Source: a virus
Strand: one strand, 5' to 3'
UHGV virus genome: UHGV-0337515
Length of the DNA stretch: 18,996 nt
Within the stretch, counting starts at the first letter, position 1. Every line of letters starts with the position of its first letter. Below, in pieces: positions 151 to 17,590 of the stretch. The notes under the pieces were generated by a model. It saw only the letters and a list, made by a program, of their open reading frames with translations, had not been told where the DNA came from and made no database searches. Both the position numbers and the translations under genes were made by a program.

Positions 151-179
151 AACAAAAAACCCATTTATGTAAATGGGTT
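151..179 (-). terminator. Rho-independent terminator of the leftward cI-int operon; possibly overlaps the att core
   Basis: Perfect 10-bp inverted repeat aacccattta/taaatgggtt (158-167 / 170-179) with a 2-nt loop. On the minus strand it is followed by a T-run (plus-strand A-run 151-159). Confidence 0.55.
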
Positions 180-216: not shown

Positions 217-284
217 GGTTGGTGGTCAGTGGTGGTTATTACGGGGTAATGCCAACCGCTGCCGCCACTTTGTCGCCACTTGTT

Positions 285-554
285 TTACCTTAGACGCCAG
301 GGGCCTCTATCTTCAATCTGTTCGACTAACCCCTCCTCTTCTAGTTCACGCAATAGTGCAACAACCCAATATTGTTGGTTCGAACTTGTTGCTTTCCGTT
401 TTTCTCCCCAATCGAGGCCGCTTAGACGAAATACCTCAGCTTGCTTAACGCCGTTGCCGTTTTTTTGGGCATCTGGGTGAGTTTTAAGTACGGATAAAGC
501 CAATTCTTTGGCTCTGTTGCGCAATTCCGCTCCCTGATGCTGAAACTTATTCAT
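285..554 (-). CDS. Hypothetical 89-aa protein, possibly winged-helix DNA-binding, downstream of int
   Basis: ORF with GGAG 8 nt upstream of the ATG at 554. C-terminal half (QQYWVVALLRELEEEGLVEQ) resembles a winged-helix recognition region. Function not recognised. Confidence 0.55.
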   Translation of the reverse strand: MNKFQHQGAELRNRAKELALSVLKTHPDAQKNGNGVKQAEVFRLSGLDWGEKRKATSSNQQYWVVALLRELEEEGLVEQIEDRGPWRLR

Positions 555-612
555 TGATAGTGCTCCATGTGAAAAAAAAGAATATTAGCTCAACAGGGCA
601 AAATACGCATTT

Positions 613-1644
613 TCAAAAACTTGCTATTGATGTTGGTAGTGTTGCCAGCGGATTAAACCGTAATGCAGTTTCCAGGTGATCCGGTGCCAGATGTGCGTAA
701 CGCATAGTCATTTTTATATCGTGATGCCCGAGAATTTTTTGTAAGGCCAGGATATTTCCACCCGACATCATGAAGTGCGCCGCAAACGTATGGCGCAGAA
801 CGTGTGTCAGTTGACCGCGAGGGAGCACGATAGACGTTTTTTCCATCACGGATAAAAATTGAAAATAGCAGTCTGTAAAGAAATTGAACCCATCAAGCGC
901 CATGATCTCTTCGTAAAGCTCTTTACTGATAGGGATGCTTCTGTTTTTCTTCCCCTTCGTTCTTACAAAGGTAATTCGGTATTTGGTCACCTGTGAGCGG
1001 GTAAGATTTACGGCTTCACGCCAACGTGCGCCTGTGCTTAAGCATATCTTAACTACCAGTGCCAGAATTGGGTCCTGACGTTTGCAATCAGCCAGCAATT
1101 CAACAATCTGCTCATGGGTAAGCCATGCCATCTCTTTTTCTGCGATGGTGAATTTTCGCATGTTCTCCAGTGGGTTCGGATACGACCATTCGCCCAGGCG
1201 GGATAGTTCGCTAAAAACACTACTTAGATAGCTTTGCTCCAGGTTAATGGTGACCGGGCTTGCTCCTTTCTTCCATTTCTCGCTGAAGTAGATCTCACCT
1301 GTCAGGCGTTTATCTCGATAGTGGGCAAACATTTTAGATGTGAGATCAGTTGCAAGGGGATTGCCCAGAGCGTCAACCATCAGCAGCAATTTGTCATAGA
1401 CATGCTGCCCAGCAGTCAGTGATTTACCATGTAGTTTGAACCATAGCTCAACCACGTCTTTCAGTGTTCGACGATCCACTGATTCACCCAGCCAGGGCTT
1501 TGCTTCGGTTTCTTCCATCGTGTGACGCTCAAAAGCCAGTGCTTCGCCTTTGGTGGCGAATTGTTTACGCACACGACGCCCACTACGTCCGGCGGGGTAA
1601 CATTCGCAAAGCCATTTTCCTGTGGTGAGTTTTCGTACAGCCAT
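613..1644 (-). CDS. int: Tyrosine integrase (P2/186 Int family)
   Basis: Translation from ATG at 1644 (MAVRKLTTGKWLCECYPAGRSGRRVRKQFATKGEALAFE…) matches the P2 Int N-terminus. C-terminus carries HxLRHT…RYAHL catalytic motifs. The ORF-track 5' extension to 1800 has no counterpart in P2 Int. Confidence 0.92.
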   Translation of the reverse strand: MAVRKLTTGKWLCECYPAGRSGRRVRKQFATKGEALAFERHTMEETEAKPWLGESVDRRTLKDVVELWFKLHGKSLTAGQHVYDKLLLMVDALGNPLATDLTSKMFAHYRDKRLTGEIYFSEKWKKGASPVTINLEQSYLSSVFSELSRLGEWSYPNPLENMRKFTIAEKEMAWLTHEQIVELLADCKRQDPILALVVKICLSTGARWREAVNLTRSQVTKYRITFVRTKGKKNRSIPISKELYEEIMALDGFNFFTDCYFQFLSVMEKTSIVLPRGQLTHVLRHTFAAHFMMSGGNILALQKILGHHDIKMTMRYAHLAPDHLETALRFNPLATLPTSIASF

Positions 1645-3505: not shown

Positions 3506-3802
3506 ATGCTGACGAAAGAACCATCATTTGCATCGCTGCTGGTAAAGCAAAGTCCGGCAATGCACTACGGTCACGGCTGGATCATGGGTGAGGATGGAAA
3601 ACGCTGGCATCCATGTCATTCACAAGATGAATTGCTGTCTGAATTGACCACGAGGAAACGGAGAAAGTCAAAATGTATGCAGCGGAAAGTGAAGTGGTTT
3701 ATCAGTTTCGTTACAGAGGGGAGAGTTATTCAGTACCTGAAGATGATTTGCTCTGTTGTTATCCGTCGTTGTTGGGCGATGGCAGTTACTTTTTCACGCT
3801 AA
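3506..3802 (+). CDS. Hypothetical early protein (98 aa) at the fil-like position after cII
   Basis: First ATG at 3506 with GAGG 5 nt upstream, directly after the cII stop. The 3' third overlaps the next ORF in another frame, so the true stop is uncertain. Confidence 0.4.
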   Translation: MLTKEPSFASLLVKQSPAMHYGHGWIMGEDGKRWHPCHSQDELLSELTTRKRRKSKCMQRKVKWFISFVTEGRVIQYLKMICSVVIRRCWAMAVTFSR

Positions 3803-3897
3803 AGGATGGGACGTTTTTACGGGGAGAGCAGGTTAAAGAGACGATACGAAAAAATGTATCTCCTCTTGAACGTTACCGTAAGAACAAAGAACGATAG
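3673..3897 (+). CDS. Hypothetical early protein (74 aa)
   Basis: ATG at 3673 with GGAG upstream; protein-like composition (MYAAESEVVYQFRYRGESYSVPEDDLLC…). Confidence 0.45.
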   Translation: MYAAESEVVYQFRYRGESYSVPEDDLLCCYPSLLGDGSYFFTLKDGTFLRGEQVKETIRKNVSPLERYRKNKER

Positions 3898-3919
3898 TTG
3901 CGTTTTGGGGATATGAATT

Positions 3920-8752: not shown

Positions 8753-9430
8753 ATGAAAATTAATAATGTAGCGTTACCAATATCTCTTGCTGTAATCCTA
8801 ACTGGTTGCGTGCCACATGCTTCTAACCGAAATATCACTGCTATTGAAGTGGTGAAGCCAGCTATTGGGCAAAGTGCTACCGCCTACATGGGCGATCCCA
8901 TTATCACATCTGCTACTGGATTTAAAACGGACGTACTAGAACTTGGTGCGGCTAATGGTGCATTGTCTTCTATCGCTGCTGGTACATATTGCAGTGAGGG
9001 GAATGGAATTTACCGCAATTATCATAACCCTCAAGCTGTTGCGTTAAAAAATCTCTATGGGCAAATCGGTAACTATGTTGATTATGTTAGTTACGATGCT
9101 GCAAAAAATGAGATATCACCGCCAAATGGCACTTCTTATACTGCATCAGAAATTTCTATCAAACGTGTTCCTGATGGGCTGTGTCGAGTGAGTAATTCAT
9201 TGGTTAAGACTATCGAATATAATGGAAATGCAGGCGGTGTAATGAAGTTCACCTATCGTGAATTTGCAAACGATATGGCTCGTGCAGCATTTACAACAGA
9301 TTTTTCTGTAGATTCTAAGGGAAGTGATGTTATCGCTTACAAAGGTGCCAAGTTCAAAGTGAACAAGGCTGATAACTCGTCTATTTCTTATACAATTATT
9401 TCTGGCTTTGACAAGGCTGTCACGTTCTAG
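8753..9430 (+). CDS. Lipoprotein of unknown function (accessory gene)
   Basis: From ATG at 8753: MKINNVALPISLAVILTGC, a canonical lipoprotein signal peptide with lipobox LTGC. GC looks lower than the phage core genes. The track start at 8699 would put 18 residues in front of the signal peptide. Confidence 0.7.
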   Translation: MKINNVALPISLAVILTGCVPHASNRNITAIEVVKPAIGQSATAYMGDPIITSATGFKTDVLELGAANGALSSIAAGTYCSEGNGIYRNYHNPQAVALKNLYGQIGNYVDYVSYDAAKNEISPPNGTSYTASEISIKRVPDGLCRVSNSLVKTIEYNGNAGGVMKFTYREFANDMARAAFTTDFSVDSKGSDVIAYKGAKFKVNKADNSSISYTIISGFDKAVTF

Positions 9431-9603: not shown

Positions 9604-9622
9604 GGCGTGGCGGGGATACGAG
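9604..9622. other. cos-like sequence (candidate cohesive-end site)
   Basis: GGCGTGGCGGGGATACGAG; the first 13 nt match the remembered 19-nt cohesive end of 186 (GGCGTGGCGGGGA…) and P2 (GGCGAGGCGGGGAAAGCAC). Located between the A-side genes and Q, as in P2/186. Assignment from memory. Confidence 0.35.
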
Positions 9623-9774: not shown

Positions 9775-10506
9775 ATGTACAGATTGTGGGTTTTATGGGG
9801 TTGTATCTTTGTTCTTCTACTTATTATCATGGGGTGCATTCCGTTTTCACCGTTTGAAAAATGGTGGTTTATAGTTAATTTCATGTCAAATGTAAACATA
9901 ATTCGTGCTTTTCTATCAGTATTAATACTATTTTTAGTTGCTTATATCTTGCTGGTCGGTGCATTTCATCAAAGATATTCATTGAGATTAGAGCAACTTA
10001 GTTTTGGTGGTATTAATATTTTACTAAATAAGTCTGATCTTCTTTTTAAAAAGAGCGTAAAAAATTATCTGGATACGAAGCGAACATTATTTAAATTTGA
10101 TCCGAATTATGACTCAATTGAAGAAGTTTTAAACTCATATTATGAGTGCTATAAATTCATTAGAGATGAAATGAAATTACTAGATGTGAAGAAAAAAAGA
10201 GATAAAAAACTGTATTTACTTTCAAATGAAATTTTGAAAACGTTAAACTCTTTTTTAACAAAGCATCAAAATAATTATCGGAGATGGCATAAATATGTTT
10301 CAGATAATGATAAAGTGACCACAAAGGATAGAGACCCTAACGGCGAATTTATATCATTGCCGTATCATTTAACCCCTATAAGTACTATACAAAAGCATTA
10401 TTATCATTTTAGTCAAGTATTGGAAGGTTTTAAAGAAGTAAACGATTTCTTCAATGATAAGGTAGTCAAAGAGTTTGATATAAATGTTGATAAATGGAGT
10501 GAATAA
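9775..10506 (+). CDS. Membrane protein with two N-terminal transmembrane helices and a ~170-aa helical C-terminal domain; candidate defence effector
   Basis: From ATG at 9775: hydrophobic helices LWVLWGCIFVLLLIIMGCIPF and IIRAFLSVLILFLVAYILLVGAF. Very AT-rich compared with flanking phage genes. Stop overlaps the next gene's start (TAATG). The track start at 9730 is TTG inside the promoter. Confidence 0.75.
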   Translation: MYRLWVLWGCIFVLLLIIMGCIPFSPFEKWWFIVNFMSNVNIIRAFLSVLILFLVAYILLVGAFHQRYSLRLEQLSFGGINILLNKSDLLFKKSVKNYLDTKRTLFKFDPNYDSIEEVLNSYYECYKFIRDEMKLLDVKKKRDKKLYLLSNEILKTLNSFLTKHQNNYRRWHKYVSDNDKVTTKDRDPNGEFISLPYHLTPISTIQKHYYHFSQVLEGFKEVNDFFNDKVVKEFDINVDKWSE

Positions 10507-11123
10507 TGCATAAGACGTTTCTTAGTTATCATCATGCTAACGAACAAGATCTCAAAGATGAGATTATTGATTTATTCGGAGGAGAATCGTTTATTGATAA
10601 GTCGGTAAGTGATGGTGACATTAGTACAACTAACACTGATGAAACAATAATGAGGACTATTCGTGAGGATTTTTTAAAAGACTCAACGGTTACTGTCGTT
10701 CTTATTGGAACGGAAACCAAAAATCGTCCATTTGTAAACTCTGAAATTCAAGCATCACTCTGGGGAGAAAACTATAATGGTCTAATTGGTGTTATCAGAG
10801 ATGAAATTTACGACAGTGTGTTTACTCCTGCAGTATGTGCAGATCCATCATGCGGATGTTCTATAAGTCTAAGAACGCCAGGTTGGGGATATGATTATTA
10901 TTTGCCTTATCTGGTTAGAAAGAATCATGTTTATGAAAAAACAGTTCCCCATTATAATGACTCTGACGTATATTGTGCATTGGTAAAATACTCTGTCTTT
11001 ATTAAAAATCCTGAGTATTATATTGATCAGGCATTTAACAAGCGTAAGTTGATGGAACCAGCTGCTAAACGAAATCCATCGGATGTTCCTGCAATTCGCA
11101 GCTCATCAATTTTTAACTGGTAA
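10506..11123 (+). CDS. TIR-like domain protein (ThsB/DUF1863-like), candidate defence sensor or NADase
   Basis: N-terminus MHKTFLSYHHANEQD fits the TIR first-strand signature (compare ThsB …VFFSFHYQD… as remembered); central TVTVVLIGTETKNRPFVNSEIQ fits the TIR core strand plus conserved Glu region. Translationally coupled to the upstream membrane protein. AT-rich. Confidence 0.7.
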   Translation: MHKTFLSYHHANEQDLKDEIIDLFGGESFIDKSVSDGDISTTNTDETIMRTIREDFLKDSTVTVVLIGTETKNRPFVNSEIQASLWGENYNGLIGVIRDEIYDSVFTPAVCADPSCGCSISLRTPGWGYDYYLPYLVRKNHVYEKTVPHYNDSDVYCALVKYSVFIKNPEYYIDQAFNKRKLMEPAAKRNPSDVPAIRSSSIFNW

Positions 11124-14007: not shown

Positions 14008-14025
14008 TGTGTGGTTGTCGGTACA
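14008..14025. promoter_or_regulatory. Candidate Ogr-dependent late promoter element (TGT-N12-ACA) in the divergent P/O control region
   Basis: TGTGTGGTTGTCGGTACA fits the TGT-N12-ACA dyad of P2-family late promoters; lies about 80 bp upstream of the O start codon. Confidence 0.45.
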
Positions 14026-14103: not shown

Positions 14104-14937
14104 ATGACAGTGAAAGCAAAGCGTTTTCGCATCGGGGTGGAAGGTGCCACCACCGACGGACGCGAAATCCAGCGTGAATGGCTGGAACAGATGGCAGCCA
14201 GCTACAACCCGGCGGTGTATACCGCGCTGATTAACCTTGAGCACATCAAGTCTTATCTGCCGGACAGCACCTTTAACCGCTACGGCAAGGTGACTGCGCT
14301 GTTTGCTGAAGAAATCACGGAAGGTCCGCTGGCAGGCAAGATGGCGCTGTATGCCGACGTTGAGCCAACGGAGTCCCTGGTGGAACTGGTGAAAAAAGGC
14401 CAGAAATTATTCACCTCTATGGAAGTCAGCCCGAAGTTTGCTGATACGGGCAAAGCCTACCTGGTCGGCCTGGCTGCCACTGATGACCCTGCCAGTCTGG
14501 GCACTGAAATGCTGACATTCAGCGCCAGTGCAGCACATAACCCGCTGGCAAACCGCAAGCAGAATCCCGCCAATCTTTTTACCGCTGCAGAGGAAACGGT
14601 GATCGAACTGGAAGAAATCCAGGAGGACAAGCCGTCCCTGTTTGCCCGCGTCACGGCGCTGTTCACCAAAAAAGAGCAGTCCGATGATGCCAAGTTCTCT
14701 GATGTGCATAAGGCCGTGGAACTGGTCGCCACTGAGCAGCAGAACCTGAGCACGTGCACCGAAAAATCCCTGTCTGAGCAGGAAGAACGCCTGTCTGAGC
14801 TGGAGGCTGCCCTGCAGGCACAGCAGACCGCCTTTAACGAACTGGTGGACAAGCTGAGCCATGAAGACAGCCGCCAGGACTACCGCCAGCGTGCAACAGG
14901 CGGTAACGCCCCCGCTGACACTCTGACCAATTGCTGA
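14104..14937 (+). CDS. O: Capsid scaffolding protein (P2 gpO family)
   Basis: 277 aa starting MTVKAKRFRIGVEGATTDGREI…; first rightward late gene, size close to P2 gpO (about 284 aa). Confidence 0.85.
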   Translation: MTVKAKRFRIGVEGATTDGREIQREWLEQMAASYNPAVYTALINLEHIKSYLPDSTFNRYGKVTALFAEEITEGPLAGKMALYADVEPTESLVELVKKGQKLFTSMEVSPKFADTGKAYLVGLAATDDPASLGTEMLTFSASAAHNPLANRKQNPANLFTAAEETVIELEEIQEDKPSLFARVTALFTKKEQSDDAKFSDVHKAVELVATEQQNLSTCTEKSLSEQEERLSELEAALQAQQTAFNELVDKLSHEDSRQDYRQRATGGNAPADTLTNC

Positions 14938-14953
14938 TGGAGCACAAAACCTG

Positions 14954-15334
14954 ATGAAGAAGAATACCCGCTTTGCTTTTAACGCTTACCTGCAGCAGCT
15001 GGCGCGTCTGAACGGTGTGGCAGTTGAAGAACTGTCCAGCAAGTTCACTGTGGAGCCGTCTGTGCAGCAGACGCTGGAAGACCAAATCCAGCAGTCCGCC
15101 GCTTTCCTGACGCTGATTAACGTCACGCCAGTGACTGAGCAGTCCGGTCAGCTGCTGGGGCTGGGTGTTGGCACCCGCCGCCGCTCAGTTATCGACAACC
15201 CGAAACGTGACCGGATTGAAAACTTTGAATCCGTTAACGAAGCCTATGTAGTTGAGGACTACCGCTGCGCCGCACTGGTGGAAAACATCCAGATTGGCGA
15301 CTTCAGCGCCGCCGCAGCAGAAGCCGGAGCGTAA
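14954..15334 (+). pseudogene. N: Major capsid protein gene N with a large in-frame internal deletion (126 aa instead of about 357)
   Basis: N-terminus (MKKNTRFAFNAYLQQLARLNG…FTVEPSVQQTL…) and C-terminus (…DNPKRDRIENFESVNEAYVVEDYRCAALVENIQIGDFSAAAAEAGA) both match P2 gpN ends, but the middle ~230 residues are absent. Junction near 15175-15185. Confidence 0.7.
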
Positions 15335-15337
15335 ACC

Positions 15338-15988
15338 ATGAGCCTGAGTCCCGCACGGCAGCATCGCCTGCGCGTTCAGGCTGAACAGGCCGCCCGTGAG
15401 GGCGGCAGTGTTCGCCACGCGTCGGGCTATGACCTGATGCTGCTGCAACTGGCGGAAGACCGCCGCCGTCTCAAGGGCGTTCAGTCCACGGTGAAAAAAG
15501 CGGAAATAAAGGTGGAGCTGCTGCCGAAATATGCCGCCTGGGCGGAGGGCGTCCTGGCTGCCGGAGGCGCTCAACAGGATGACGTGCTGATGTACGTGAT
15601 GCTGTGGCGCATTGATGCCGGAGATTATGCCGGGGCGCTGGAGATCGGGCGTCATGCCCTGCGTCATGGCTGGGTGATGCCGCTGGGTAACCGCAACGTG
15701 CAGACCGTGCTGGCAGAGGAAATGGCAGACGCCGCGCAGAGCGCAATGCTTGCCGCCACCGGCTTTGATGCCGATCTGTTGCTGCAGACGCTGGAGCTGA
15801 CAGACGGTCTGGATATGCCGGACCAGTCACGGGCTCGTCTGCATAAAGCGATTGGCGCGGTCCTGAGTGAAAGCAATCCGGCGTCTGCCCTTAATCATCT
15901 CAACCATGCGTTACAGCTCGATCCCCGCTGTGGCGTGAAAAAAGACAAACAGCAGCTGGAGCGCAGACTGCGCAATGACAGCCGCTGA
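15338..15988 (+). CDS. M: Terminase small subunit (P2 gpM family)
   Basis: …LLPKYAAWAEGVLAAGGAQQDDVLMYVMLWRIDAGDYAGALEIGRHAL…TLELTDGLDMPDQSRARLHK… parallels remembered P2 gpM. Confidence 0.85.
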   Translation: MSLSPARQHRLRVQAEQAAREGGSVRHASGYDLMLLQLAEDRRRLKGVQSTVKKAEIKVELLPKYAAWAEGVLAAGGAQQDDVLMYVMLWRIDAGDYAGALEIGRHALRHGWVMPLGNRNVQTVLAEEMADAAQSAMLAATGFDADLLLQTLELTDGLDMPDQSRARLHKAIGAVLSESNPASALNHLNHALQLDPRCGVKKDKQQLERRLRNDSR

Positions 15989-16754: not shown

Positions 16755-16970
16755 ATGACGCTTGAGCGAATCAGCGCCTTTATCACGTATTGCATCGCCG
16801 TCGTGCTGGCCTGGCTGGGCGATTTGTCCATCAAGGATGCCTCAACGCTGGGCGGCCTGATGATCGGTGTGCTGATGCTGGCTATCAACTGGTACTACAA
16901 ACACAAAGCCTACCAGCTTCTGCGCGACGGGCAGATCTCGCGGGAGGACTATGAATCCATCAATCGTTAA
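16755..16970 (+). CDS. Holin (two hydrophobic segments, charged C-terminus)
   Basis: 71 aa with two hydrophobic helices and a charged tail (…YYKHKAYQLLRDGQISREDYESINR), at the holin position before the endolysin. Confidence 0.65.
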   Translation: MTLERISAFITYCIAVVLAWLGDLSIKDASTLGGLMIGVLMLAINWYYKHKAYQLLRDGQISREDYESINR

Positions 16971-17109
16971 ACGCTGCCTTGTCGGGGCCGTGCTGGCTAT
17001 TGCTGCCACGCTGCCGGGGTTTCAGCAGCTTCACACCTCCGTGGAGGGGCTGAAACTGATTGCCGATTACGAAGGCTGTCGTCTGCAGCCGTATCAGTGC
17101 AGCGCGGGT
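16951..17109 (+). pseudogene. N-terminal stub of a SAR-type endolysin (GH24 lysozyme); remainder deleted
   Basis: MNPSIVKRCLVGAVLAIAATLPGF…EGLKLIADYEGCRLQPYQCSAG parallels the P1 Lyz N-terminus (…AGLELIGNAEGCRRDPYMCPAGVWTDGIG…). After about residue 53 the frame runs out of frame into gene U. Confidence 0.7.
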
Positions 17110-17110
17110 G

Positions 17111-17590
17111 ATGGTGCTGGGATTGTACGTGTTTATGCTGCGCACCGTTCCGTATCAGGAACTGCAGTATCAACGCAGCTGGCGACATGCGGCAAACAGT
17201 CGGGTAAACCGACGTCCGTCCACGCAGTTTCTGGGACCGGAAAACGACATGCTGACGCTTTCCGGTGTTCTTATGCCGGAGATAACAGGCGGCAGGCTGT
17301 CGTTGCTGGCACTGGAGCAGATGGCAGAACAGGGGAAAGCATGGCCCCTGATTGAAGGCAGTGGCACGATTTACGGTATGTATGTGATTGAGGGACTGAA
17401 TCAGACTAAAACGGAGTTTTTCCGCGATGGTATGCCGCGCCGGATTGAGTTTACCCTGTCGCTCAAACGGGTGGATGAATCCCTGTCCGATATGTTCGGT
17501 GATCTCAGTGCGCAGCTGAATAATTTGCAGGATACGGTAACGTCTGCCTTAAGCGATATCAGTAAAACGGTGGGAGGGCTGCTGTCGTGA
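17111..17590 (+). CDS. U: Tail protein U (P2 gpU family)
   Basis: MVLGLYVFMLRTVPYQELQYQRSWRHAANSRV…LSGVLMPEITGG…AWPLIEGSGTIYGMYVI…RVDESL matches P2 gpU. Its usual upstream context is replaced by the endolysin stub and no good SD is visible. Confidence 0.8.
   Translation: MVLGLYVFMLRTVPYQELQYQRSWRHAANSRVNRRPSTQFLGPENDMLTLSGVLMPEITGGRLSLLALEQMAEQGKAWPLIEGSGTIYGMYVIEGLNQTKTEFFRDGMPRRIEFTLSLKRVDESLSDMFGDLSAQLNNLQDTVTSALSDISKTVGGLLS

Follow-up and report, generated by a model that had tools for sequence, protein, structure and literature searches.

An in-frame internal deletion of the major capsid gene in a P2-like prophage remnant of Escherichia coli

The late operon of a P2-like prophage carries, in the slot between the scaffold gene O and the terminase gene M, a reading frame of only 126 codons that the initial annotation took for the two ends of the major capsid gene N joined together. 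This locus raises the question of whether the short gene (N') is an assembly artefact, a member of a short capsid family or the relic of a full-length gene, and, if it is a relic, whether its product is kept for a purpose. The DNA in question is a stretch of 18,996 nucleotides (UHGV-0337515), which we call the window. Very probably it holds an ~18.9-kb P2-like prophage remnant in which the centre of N was lost in frame and a second deletion occurred downstream, an instance of ordinary and recent prophage decay.

Map of the remnant and its second deletion

The window extends from the left attachment site of the prophage to the stop codon of ogr, and its gene order and homology are those of P2. 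The left part reads int, repressor and early genes, a DNA adenine methylase gene, replication gene A and cargo genes. In the right part, portal gene Q and terminase gene P lie on the minus strand, followed on the plus strand by O, N', M, L, X, holin, a lysozyme fragment, U, D and ogr. The features outside N' that are used below are:

151 to 164, plus strand: attL core AACAAAAAACCCAT, the left end of the remnant, on the rcdA side
9604 to 9622, plus strand: cos-like 19-mer GGCGTGGCGGGGATACGAG, matching P2 cos at 14 of 19 positions, with a flank homologous to the P2 cos region
14008 to 14025, plus strand: TGT-N12-ACA dyad between P and O, in the form of the P2 late-promoter activator site
14104 to 14937, plus strand: intact gpO scaffold/protease gene, 277 aa, upstream of N' in the same late operon
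15338 to 15988, plus strand: intact gpM terminase small subunit gene, 216 aa, starting 3 nt past the N' stop
16951 to 17110, plus strand: K', the first ~53 lysozyme codons, then out of frame, by comparison with GPEC1189
17109 to 17110, plus strand: deletion junction 2, with TG common to both sides, running from lysozyme codon ~54 to gpU codon 2
17111 to 17590, plus strand: gpU gene lacking its first codon only, 159 aa, PF06995
18778 to 18996, plus strand: intact ogr late-gene activator gene, 72 aa, at whose stop codon the window ends

The dyad is a putative late-promoter activator site, since P2 has such a site annotated between P and O. The attL core is repeated past ogr in a contig that carries the same allele (L003, 14121-14134), and that contig runs on into ybjL, ybjM, grxA and nfsA, placing the element at an att site with host genes on both sides. 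A 22-nt repeat, CGCTGCCGCCA(C/T)TTTGTCGCCA, flanks the att core (window 257-278; L003 14044-14065) and may be an arm-type integrase binding site.

The prophage of GPEC1189 (NZ_CM142788.1) sits at the same att site (rcdA/ybjL), carries the same cargo (225-aa, 243-aa and TIR genes) and has collinear shared prophage blocks at 98.0-99.8% DNA identity, but it is complete, with a full 1059-bp N and the whole lysis and tail region. The same contrast holds for Escherichia phage 500465-1 and Klebsiella phage 4LV2017 (Peduoviridae), which have the O-N-M order of the window together with a full 1059-bp N and a complete lysis/tail region. FDAARGOS_1248 was considered as a shorter relative and rejected, as it proved to be two tandem prophages.

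Apart from two lesions, the reading frames of the window have the lengths found in the intact prophage. Compared with GPEC1189, junction 2 marks the loss of ~15.5 kb of lysis and tail genes, comprising the rest of K, lysA/B/C, R, S, V, W, J, I, H, G, FI, FII, E and T. The initial annotation had described the capsid fusion as a second, independent inactivating lesion, and the map agrees: the downstream loss is a separate deletion with its own junction, 1.9 kb beyond the one in N. With N cut down and lysis and tail genes absent, the window shows the loss of virion genes expected of a defective P2-like prophage.

Several smaller differences and cargo genes were also recorded. The 3' end of int carries 350 bp (window 283-632), including an 89-aa reading frame, that are absent in GPEC1189 and alter the C-terminal tail of Int; as 209 complete E. 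coli genomes have this arrangement in full, it counts as a widespread natural variant and not as damage. In the early region, 258 bp (window 3662-3919) stand in place of 8 bp of the GPEC1189 prophage, a mosaic difference. A 225-aa reading frame between a DinI-like gene and cos (window 8753-9430), present in the GPEC1189 prophage too, matched nothing in Pfam or PADLOC. A two-gene cargo (window 9775-11123), located between the cos-like site and Q, the portal gene, encodes a 243-aa protein without a family match and a 205-aa ThsB-like TIR protein (PF08937; PADLOC ThsB). This pair is a candidate anti-phage module, though one that lacks a ThsA-type partner.

Structure of N' and of its product

N' starts 16 nt past the stop of O, with GGAG 11 nt upstream of its start. 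Its break was mapped against the 1059-bp N of Escherichia phage 500465-1, base by base, and against the GPEC1189 prophage by BLAST, which resolves the gene as follows:

14954 to 15334, plus strand: N', the truncated major capsid gene, 126 codons, ATG at 14954, TAA at 15332-15334
14954 to 15173, plus strand: 5' segment, N nt 1-220, residues 1-73, from the base-by-base comparison
15172 to 15173, plus strand: deletion junction 1, a CA common to both parents, from the base-by-base comparison
15174 to 15334, plus strand: 3' segment, N nt 899-1059, residues 300-352, opening with the recurrent break-point motif (A)CCCGCCGCCGC

With the overlapping CA counted on both sides, window 15172-15334 corresponds to N nt 897-1059 of the intact 1059-bp gene. 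The overlap would be GGCA instead of CA had the ancestor carried the natural GAAGGC variant. What is missing is 678 bp, or 3 x 226 codons, encoding residues 74-299 of 352, so that the frame is kept, as had been proposed, and residues 1-73 are joined directly to 300-352 of the 352-residue protein. The initial annotation had put the junction at about 15175-15185; the near edge of that interval lies 2-3 nt too far right of the true position, 15172-15173.

When the O-N'-M segment was searched against phage genomes by megablast, each of the 54 records aligned in two pieces, with 1885 query bases covering 2563 subject bases, a difference of 678. Phages and ~1000 complete E. coli genomes contain intact 1059-bp homologues of N that are 97.4-100% identical. 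The pairwise alignment with P2 gpN that had been proposed as a check showed the expected central gap: taking PDB 7jw1, whose 357 aa agree with the length given in the initial annotation, product residues 1-73 align to gpN 1-73 and 74-122 to gpN 302-350, while gpN residues 74-301 have no counterpart. The reading of N' as an N-terminus plus C-terminus fusion of gpN is thus upheld by two-stretch alignments to P2 gpN and to intact N alike. A second solved capsid protein of the P2 family, PDB 7oz4 (339 aa), matches intact N at E = 2e-127.

Pfam profile PF05125 matched an intact relative over positions 1-327, the whole profile, whereas the N' product matched it at positions 1-66 and over a second short C-terminal stretch only. 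The cryo-EM structure of P2 gpN (PMC7552001) gives these limits a structural meaning: the N-arm contains helices alpha0 (residues 1-14) and alpha1, gpO cuts between residues 31 and 32, E-loop contacts involve Lys64 and Glu102, and other parts of the protein include spine helix alpha3, a sir loop at residues 183-224 and the A-domain. The 5' segment of N', colinear with gpN over residues 1-73, retains the N-arm with alpha0/alpha1 and the gpO cleavage region (P2 residues 1-31/32), together with the first E-loop strand, and the 3' segment adds 53 residues from the C-terminus. A complete E-loop, spine helix alpha3, the P-domain sheet and an A-domain with its sir loop are all lacking; by the positions in that structure, the lost residues 74-299 include the distal E-loop around Glu102, alpha3, the sir loop and the A-domain helices. 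Because most of the E-loop, the spine helix and the A-domain are gone, we infer from the alignment that the N' product would be unable to form capsomers or build a shell, in line with the earlier view that so short a protein could not make an HK97-type shell. N' thus shares with P2 gpN its operon slot between O and M, but its product is a fragment and not a capsid protein. Database annotation is affected, since the name 'P2 family phage major capsid protein' is attached to this fragment at NCBI.

Distribution of the allele and competing explanations

A gene this short could also arise from assembly collapse or belong to a genuinely short capsid family, and its length, though nothing more, would suit either idea. 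Thirteen contigs, drawn from ENA, Logan and NCBI samples, encode the exact 126-aa protein; all have the same two-deletion architecture, and these independent assemblies agree on the sequence. The four places listed for the protein are ENA metagenome assemblies of three BioSamples and one Logan run, and NCBI lists the sequence under two accessions, ENE5305602.1 and EOM9376133.1, with the capsid protein name. Over 14,043 bases, both deletions included, two of the carrier contigs match the window at every position. The sides of junction 1 share 2 nt, an overlap too short for an assembler to collapse; there is no k-mer-length repeat at the junction, and the allele is not confined to one assembly. 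A short family is contradicted by the ends of N', which are 100% identical to full-length N genes, and by the restriction of the Pfam match to those two ends. Nor is the fusion a chance resemblance, since the flanking DNA is 98-99.8% identical to that of the intact prophage at the same chromosomal site. Collapse or a short family is therefore barely credible as an account of N'. When 40/50-mers spanning the junctions of both deletions were compared with 5,426 complete RefSeq E. coli genomes, no carrier of either was found, which indicates that the allele is rare and so far present only in draft and metagenome assemblies.

By the preferred account, a P2-like (Peduoviridae) prophage between rcdA and ybjL of E. 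coli lost the central 678 bp of N, probably by illegitimate, microhomology-type joining at 2 nt. That the loss is a multiple of three would be due to chance or to a filter, and residues 1-73 are now fused to 300-352. Without most of the HK97 fold, heads would no longer be made, and the second deletion, 1.9 kb downstream, took the lysis and tail genes. Both lesions appear to be recent and clonally inherited, because the other genes are full-length and the carriers are identical over 14 kb. A remnant of this kind could not make particles, which bears on whether such a prophage is predicted to be inducible.

Related remnants argue that decay of this type is routine. With the 126-aa product as seed, 138 short proteins derived from N were retrieved. 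Among them are fusions of N-terminal fragments to M, L, lysozyme, R, I, U, D, tail-fibre or tape-measure sequences, as well as frameshift variants and C-terminal fragments. Several were traced to their loci, which are P2-like remnants, mostly at the ybjL site, with 2-4 internal deletions or inversions each, and one remnant allele (P0006; L126/L127) is very widespread, in 446 index blocks of the collection. Because so many remnants have N fragments or multiple deletions, internal-deletion decay is routine in this phage family. In some of them, such as L010 (Salmonella GCA_010901555.1), L028 and L126/L127, the O-P-Q block or the early region is inverted next to the N fragment. Defective ('grounded') enterobacterial prophages are described in two reviews as internally deleted, non-inducible remnants that keep some intact genes (PMC6379469, PMC2669165). 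The window remnant resembles the prophages described there in being internally deleted with some genes intact, but differs from that description in being very fresh, with two lesions and the rest full-length, and in having a break point that recurs elsewhere.

The kept reading frame could instead reflect selection for a product that poisons the capsid assembly of a superinfecting relative, or that binds gpO or the portal. The Ogr protein of the superinfecting phage would turn on the resident late operon, and the N' fragment would then be made. Consistent with such a role, N' has kept its frame, its ribosome-binding site and its 3-nt spacing to M, the late-promoter dyad and ogr are preserved too, and the N-arm helices that it still encodes contact other subunits in the P2/P4 procapsid (PMC7552001). 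Fusions of an N-terminus to a C-terminus account for 4 among the 120 proteins listed, and three further in-frame alleles are known: P0002 (Salmonella, 181 aa), P0017 (84 aa) and P0003 (118 aa). These are independent events, as they differ from the window in left break point, host, cargo genes and secondary lesions. However, one third of deletions are in frame by chance, the protein search that yielded the other alleles favours in-frame products, and an out-of-frame deletion is known at the same break point (P0116/L025). The carriers are all identical, so no signal of selection can be read from them. We consider selection for the product very improbable, and its expression and its binding to scaffold or portal, as the initial annotation had suggested, stay putative.

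A different role would be that of a hitch-hiker, packaged in the capsids and tails of a co-resident intact P2-like phage. The remnant has kept int, early-region (immunity/regulatory) genes, A, the cos-like site, the terminase genes (P, M), portal, scaffold and ogr, and tandem or multiple P2-like prophages do occur in E. coli. Yet it has no size-redirecting gene and no satellite hallmark, and at ~19 kb it lies far under the full P2-type genome size. Nor does it fit the pattern of a P4-like satellite, which has capsid-size or helper-exploiting genes of its own (sid, psu, delta, alpha primase) and no helper-type structural operon; it carries the genes of a full P2-like phage apart from what two deletions removed. 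Being collinear with and 97-99.8% identical to a full phage, it looks like fresh damage and not like a designed reduction, and it gives no sign of mobility, since the carrier contig that passes the prophage end (L003) has the same neighbouring host genes as GPEC1189. Packaging as a hitch-hiker is accordingly a highly improbable explanation. On the reading of recent decay, N' is the capsid pseudogene of one more defective prophage, its frame kept by happenstance, and nothing points to a function of the fragment.

Recurrent break points and the Y|ACCC motif

The position of the break in N is itself shared with other prophages. In four of them (the window, L010, L011 and L025), the right ends of the N deletions are compatible with one bond, GA(C/T)|ACCCGCCGCCG, at N nt 897/898 (window 15172-15184; L010 10385-10389; L011 7748-7750; L025 10110/10111). 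In the window, L010 and L011 the retained right part begins within the same 1-3 nt, directly before CCCGCCGCCG. The left ends differ, at N nt ~97, 110, 220 and 385. L010 is a rearranged Salmonella prophage beside ssrA, and L011 is another E. coli remnant, with cargo and secondary deletions unlike those of the window. L025 (P0116) is an otherwise complete prophage whose sole lesion is a 787-bp out-of-frame deletion in N. The four alleles differ in cargo, two of them integrate at different sites, and they are ~3% apart in the 700 nt right of the site, a mutual difference that marks them as separate lineages. Of the in-frame fusions, P0002 and P0017 have this right break point in common with the window, which makes three of the four fusions among the proteins listed. 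N-internal deletions with other right ends were seen only in L012 and P0033 among the matches listed.

When IMG/VR, JGI metagenomes and GTDB genomes were scanned by pattern, no additional junctions turned up at N nt 897/898; the matches at the site were the natural variants GAGGAC, GAGGAT, GAAGGC and GACGGC only. A protein search with the out-of-frame tail returned only L025 and two frameshift variants.

Junctions elsewhere in these prophages resemble the one in N. Among the 20 mapped junctions, which are those that could be placed on an intact reference, half (10/20) show Y|ACCC on one of the two strands; they fall at 7 different sites (N898, K, A, T, FI and two in H), and in every case the ACCC side is the retained DNA. 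From the 177 occurrences of ACCC on both strands of a 33-kb prophage, we estimate that chance would give Y|ACCC at ~2-3% of junctions. Read from the bottom strand, junction 2 of the window is one of these (ATCA|CCCGCGC). The two deletions of the window arose at parental sites that have the 10-mer AGACACCCGC in common in inverted orientation (window 15165-15184 and, on the bottom strand, 17095-17115; L009 31238-31258 and 33180-33200), so that the retained M-L-X-holin-K' block is bounded by ACCC ends.

Together, the recurrent end, the Y|ACCC junctions and the inverted AGACACCCGC copies suggest, at the level of sequence pattern, that breakage was sequence-directed. The deletion in the window would then stem from a break just 5' of ACCC(G) and not at a random position: a nuclease, topoisomerase or recombinase would cut there, the ACCC side would be protected or enzyme-bound, and the other side would be resected and joined where 0-3 nt match. 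Such an origin of the lesion is compatible with decay as its explanation; because the break point is not random, random decay would not be the whole story of how the deletion arose. The single right-end bond paired with differing left ends, the scarcity of other right ends among the matches listed, the excess of Y|ACCC over the chance estimate and the inverted 10-mer at both deletion sites all favour a directed break. Against it, the motif was noticed post hoc, Y|ACCC was present in 0/3 further unselected junctions (two 10-11-nt homology events and one inversion), the IMG/VR, JGI metagenome and GTDB scans gave no further junctions at the site, the break has no hairpin and no likeness to the phage ori nick site or cos, and any enzyme is a candidate only. 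On balance we give a directed break in the window somewhat less than even weight. The wider proposal, that P2-like enterobacterial prophages are inactivated also by directed break-and-join 5' of ACCC(G), with N nt 897/898 as the hottest site and both deletions of the window included, is more tentative, and we hold it with distinctly more doubt than belief.

The putative agent could be a type II topoisomerase/gyrase cleavage complex, the prophage integrase acting on pseudo-core sites, or some other nuclease. Reading the junction as Y|RNNY|R would fit the stagger of a type II topoisomerase. The integrase idea stays alive because att cores contain ACCC, namely the AACAAAAAACCCAT core of this prophage and the ssrA-type core of L010.

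Several other candidates were rejected. The hot site does not form a hairpin (z = 0.5), and as a pseudo-ori for the A nickase its similarity to the window's own ori was no better than that of shuffles. A pseudo-cos at the break was dismissed with GGCGGG alone in common, and for a Hin/Gin-type crossover site the half-site-like sequence TTATCGACAACC lies ~30 nt off the break. Chi-like protection, a type IIS GAAGAC site and a type I-E PAM (AAG) have the wrong geometry, and GAAGAC/AAG are not conserved among the parental variants.

If prophage-killing deletions do recur at defined nucleotides, the domestication of E. coli and Salmonella prophages would be partly sequence-directed, and genetics could uncover the activity behind it. 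Of all the features of this remnant, only the recurrent break point merits follow-up, and we make no claim for it ahead of a census of junctions.

A second recurrent end lies at N nt 197 (GGTC|A) and is joined to at least 3 different downstream ACCC sites, in T, FI and H (L027 6195-6197; L028 2586; L029/L030 6196-6197). A scan of IMG/VR for N197::CCC junctions gave chance 14-mer matches only. L029 and L030 share a left end at FI 44156 and have different right partners, an arrangement that resembles nested deletions from fixed points.
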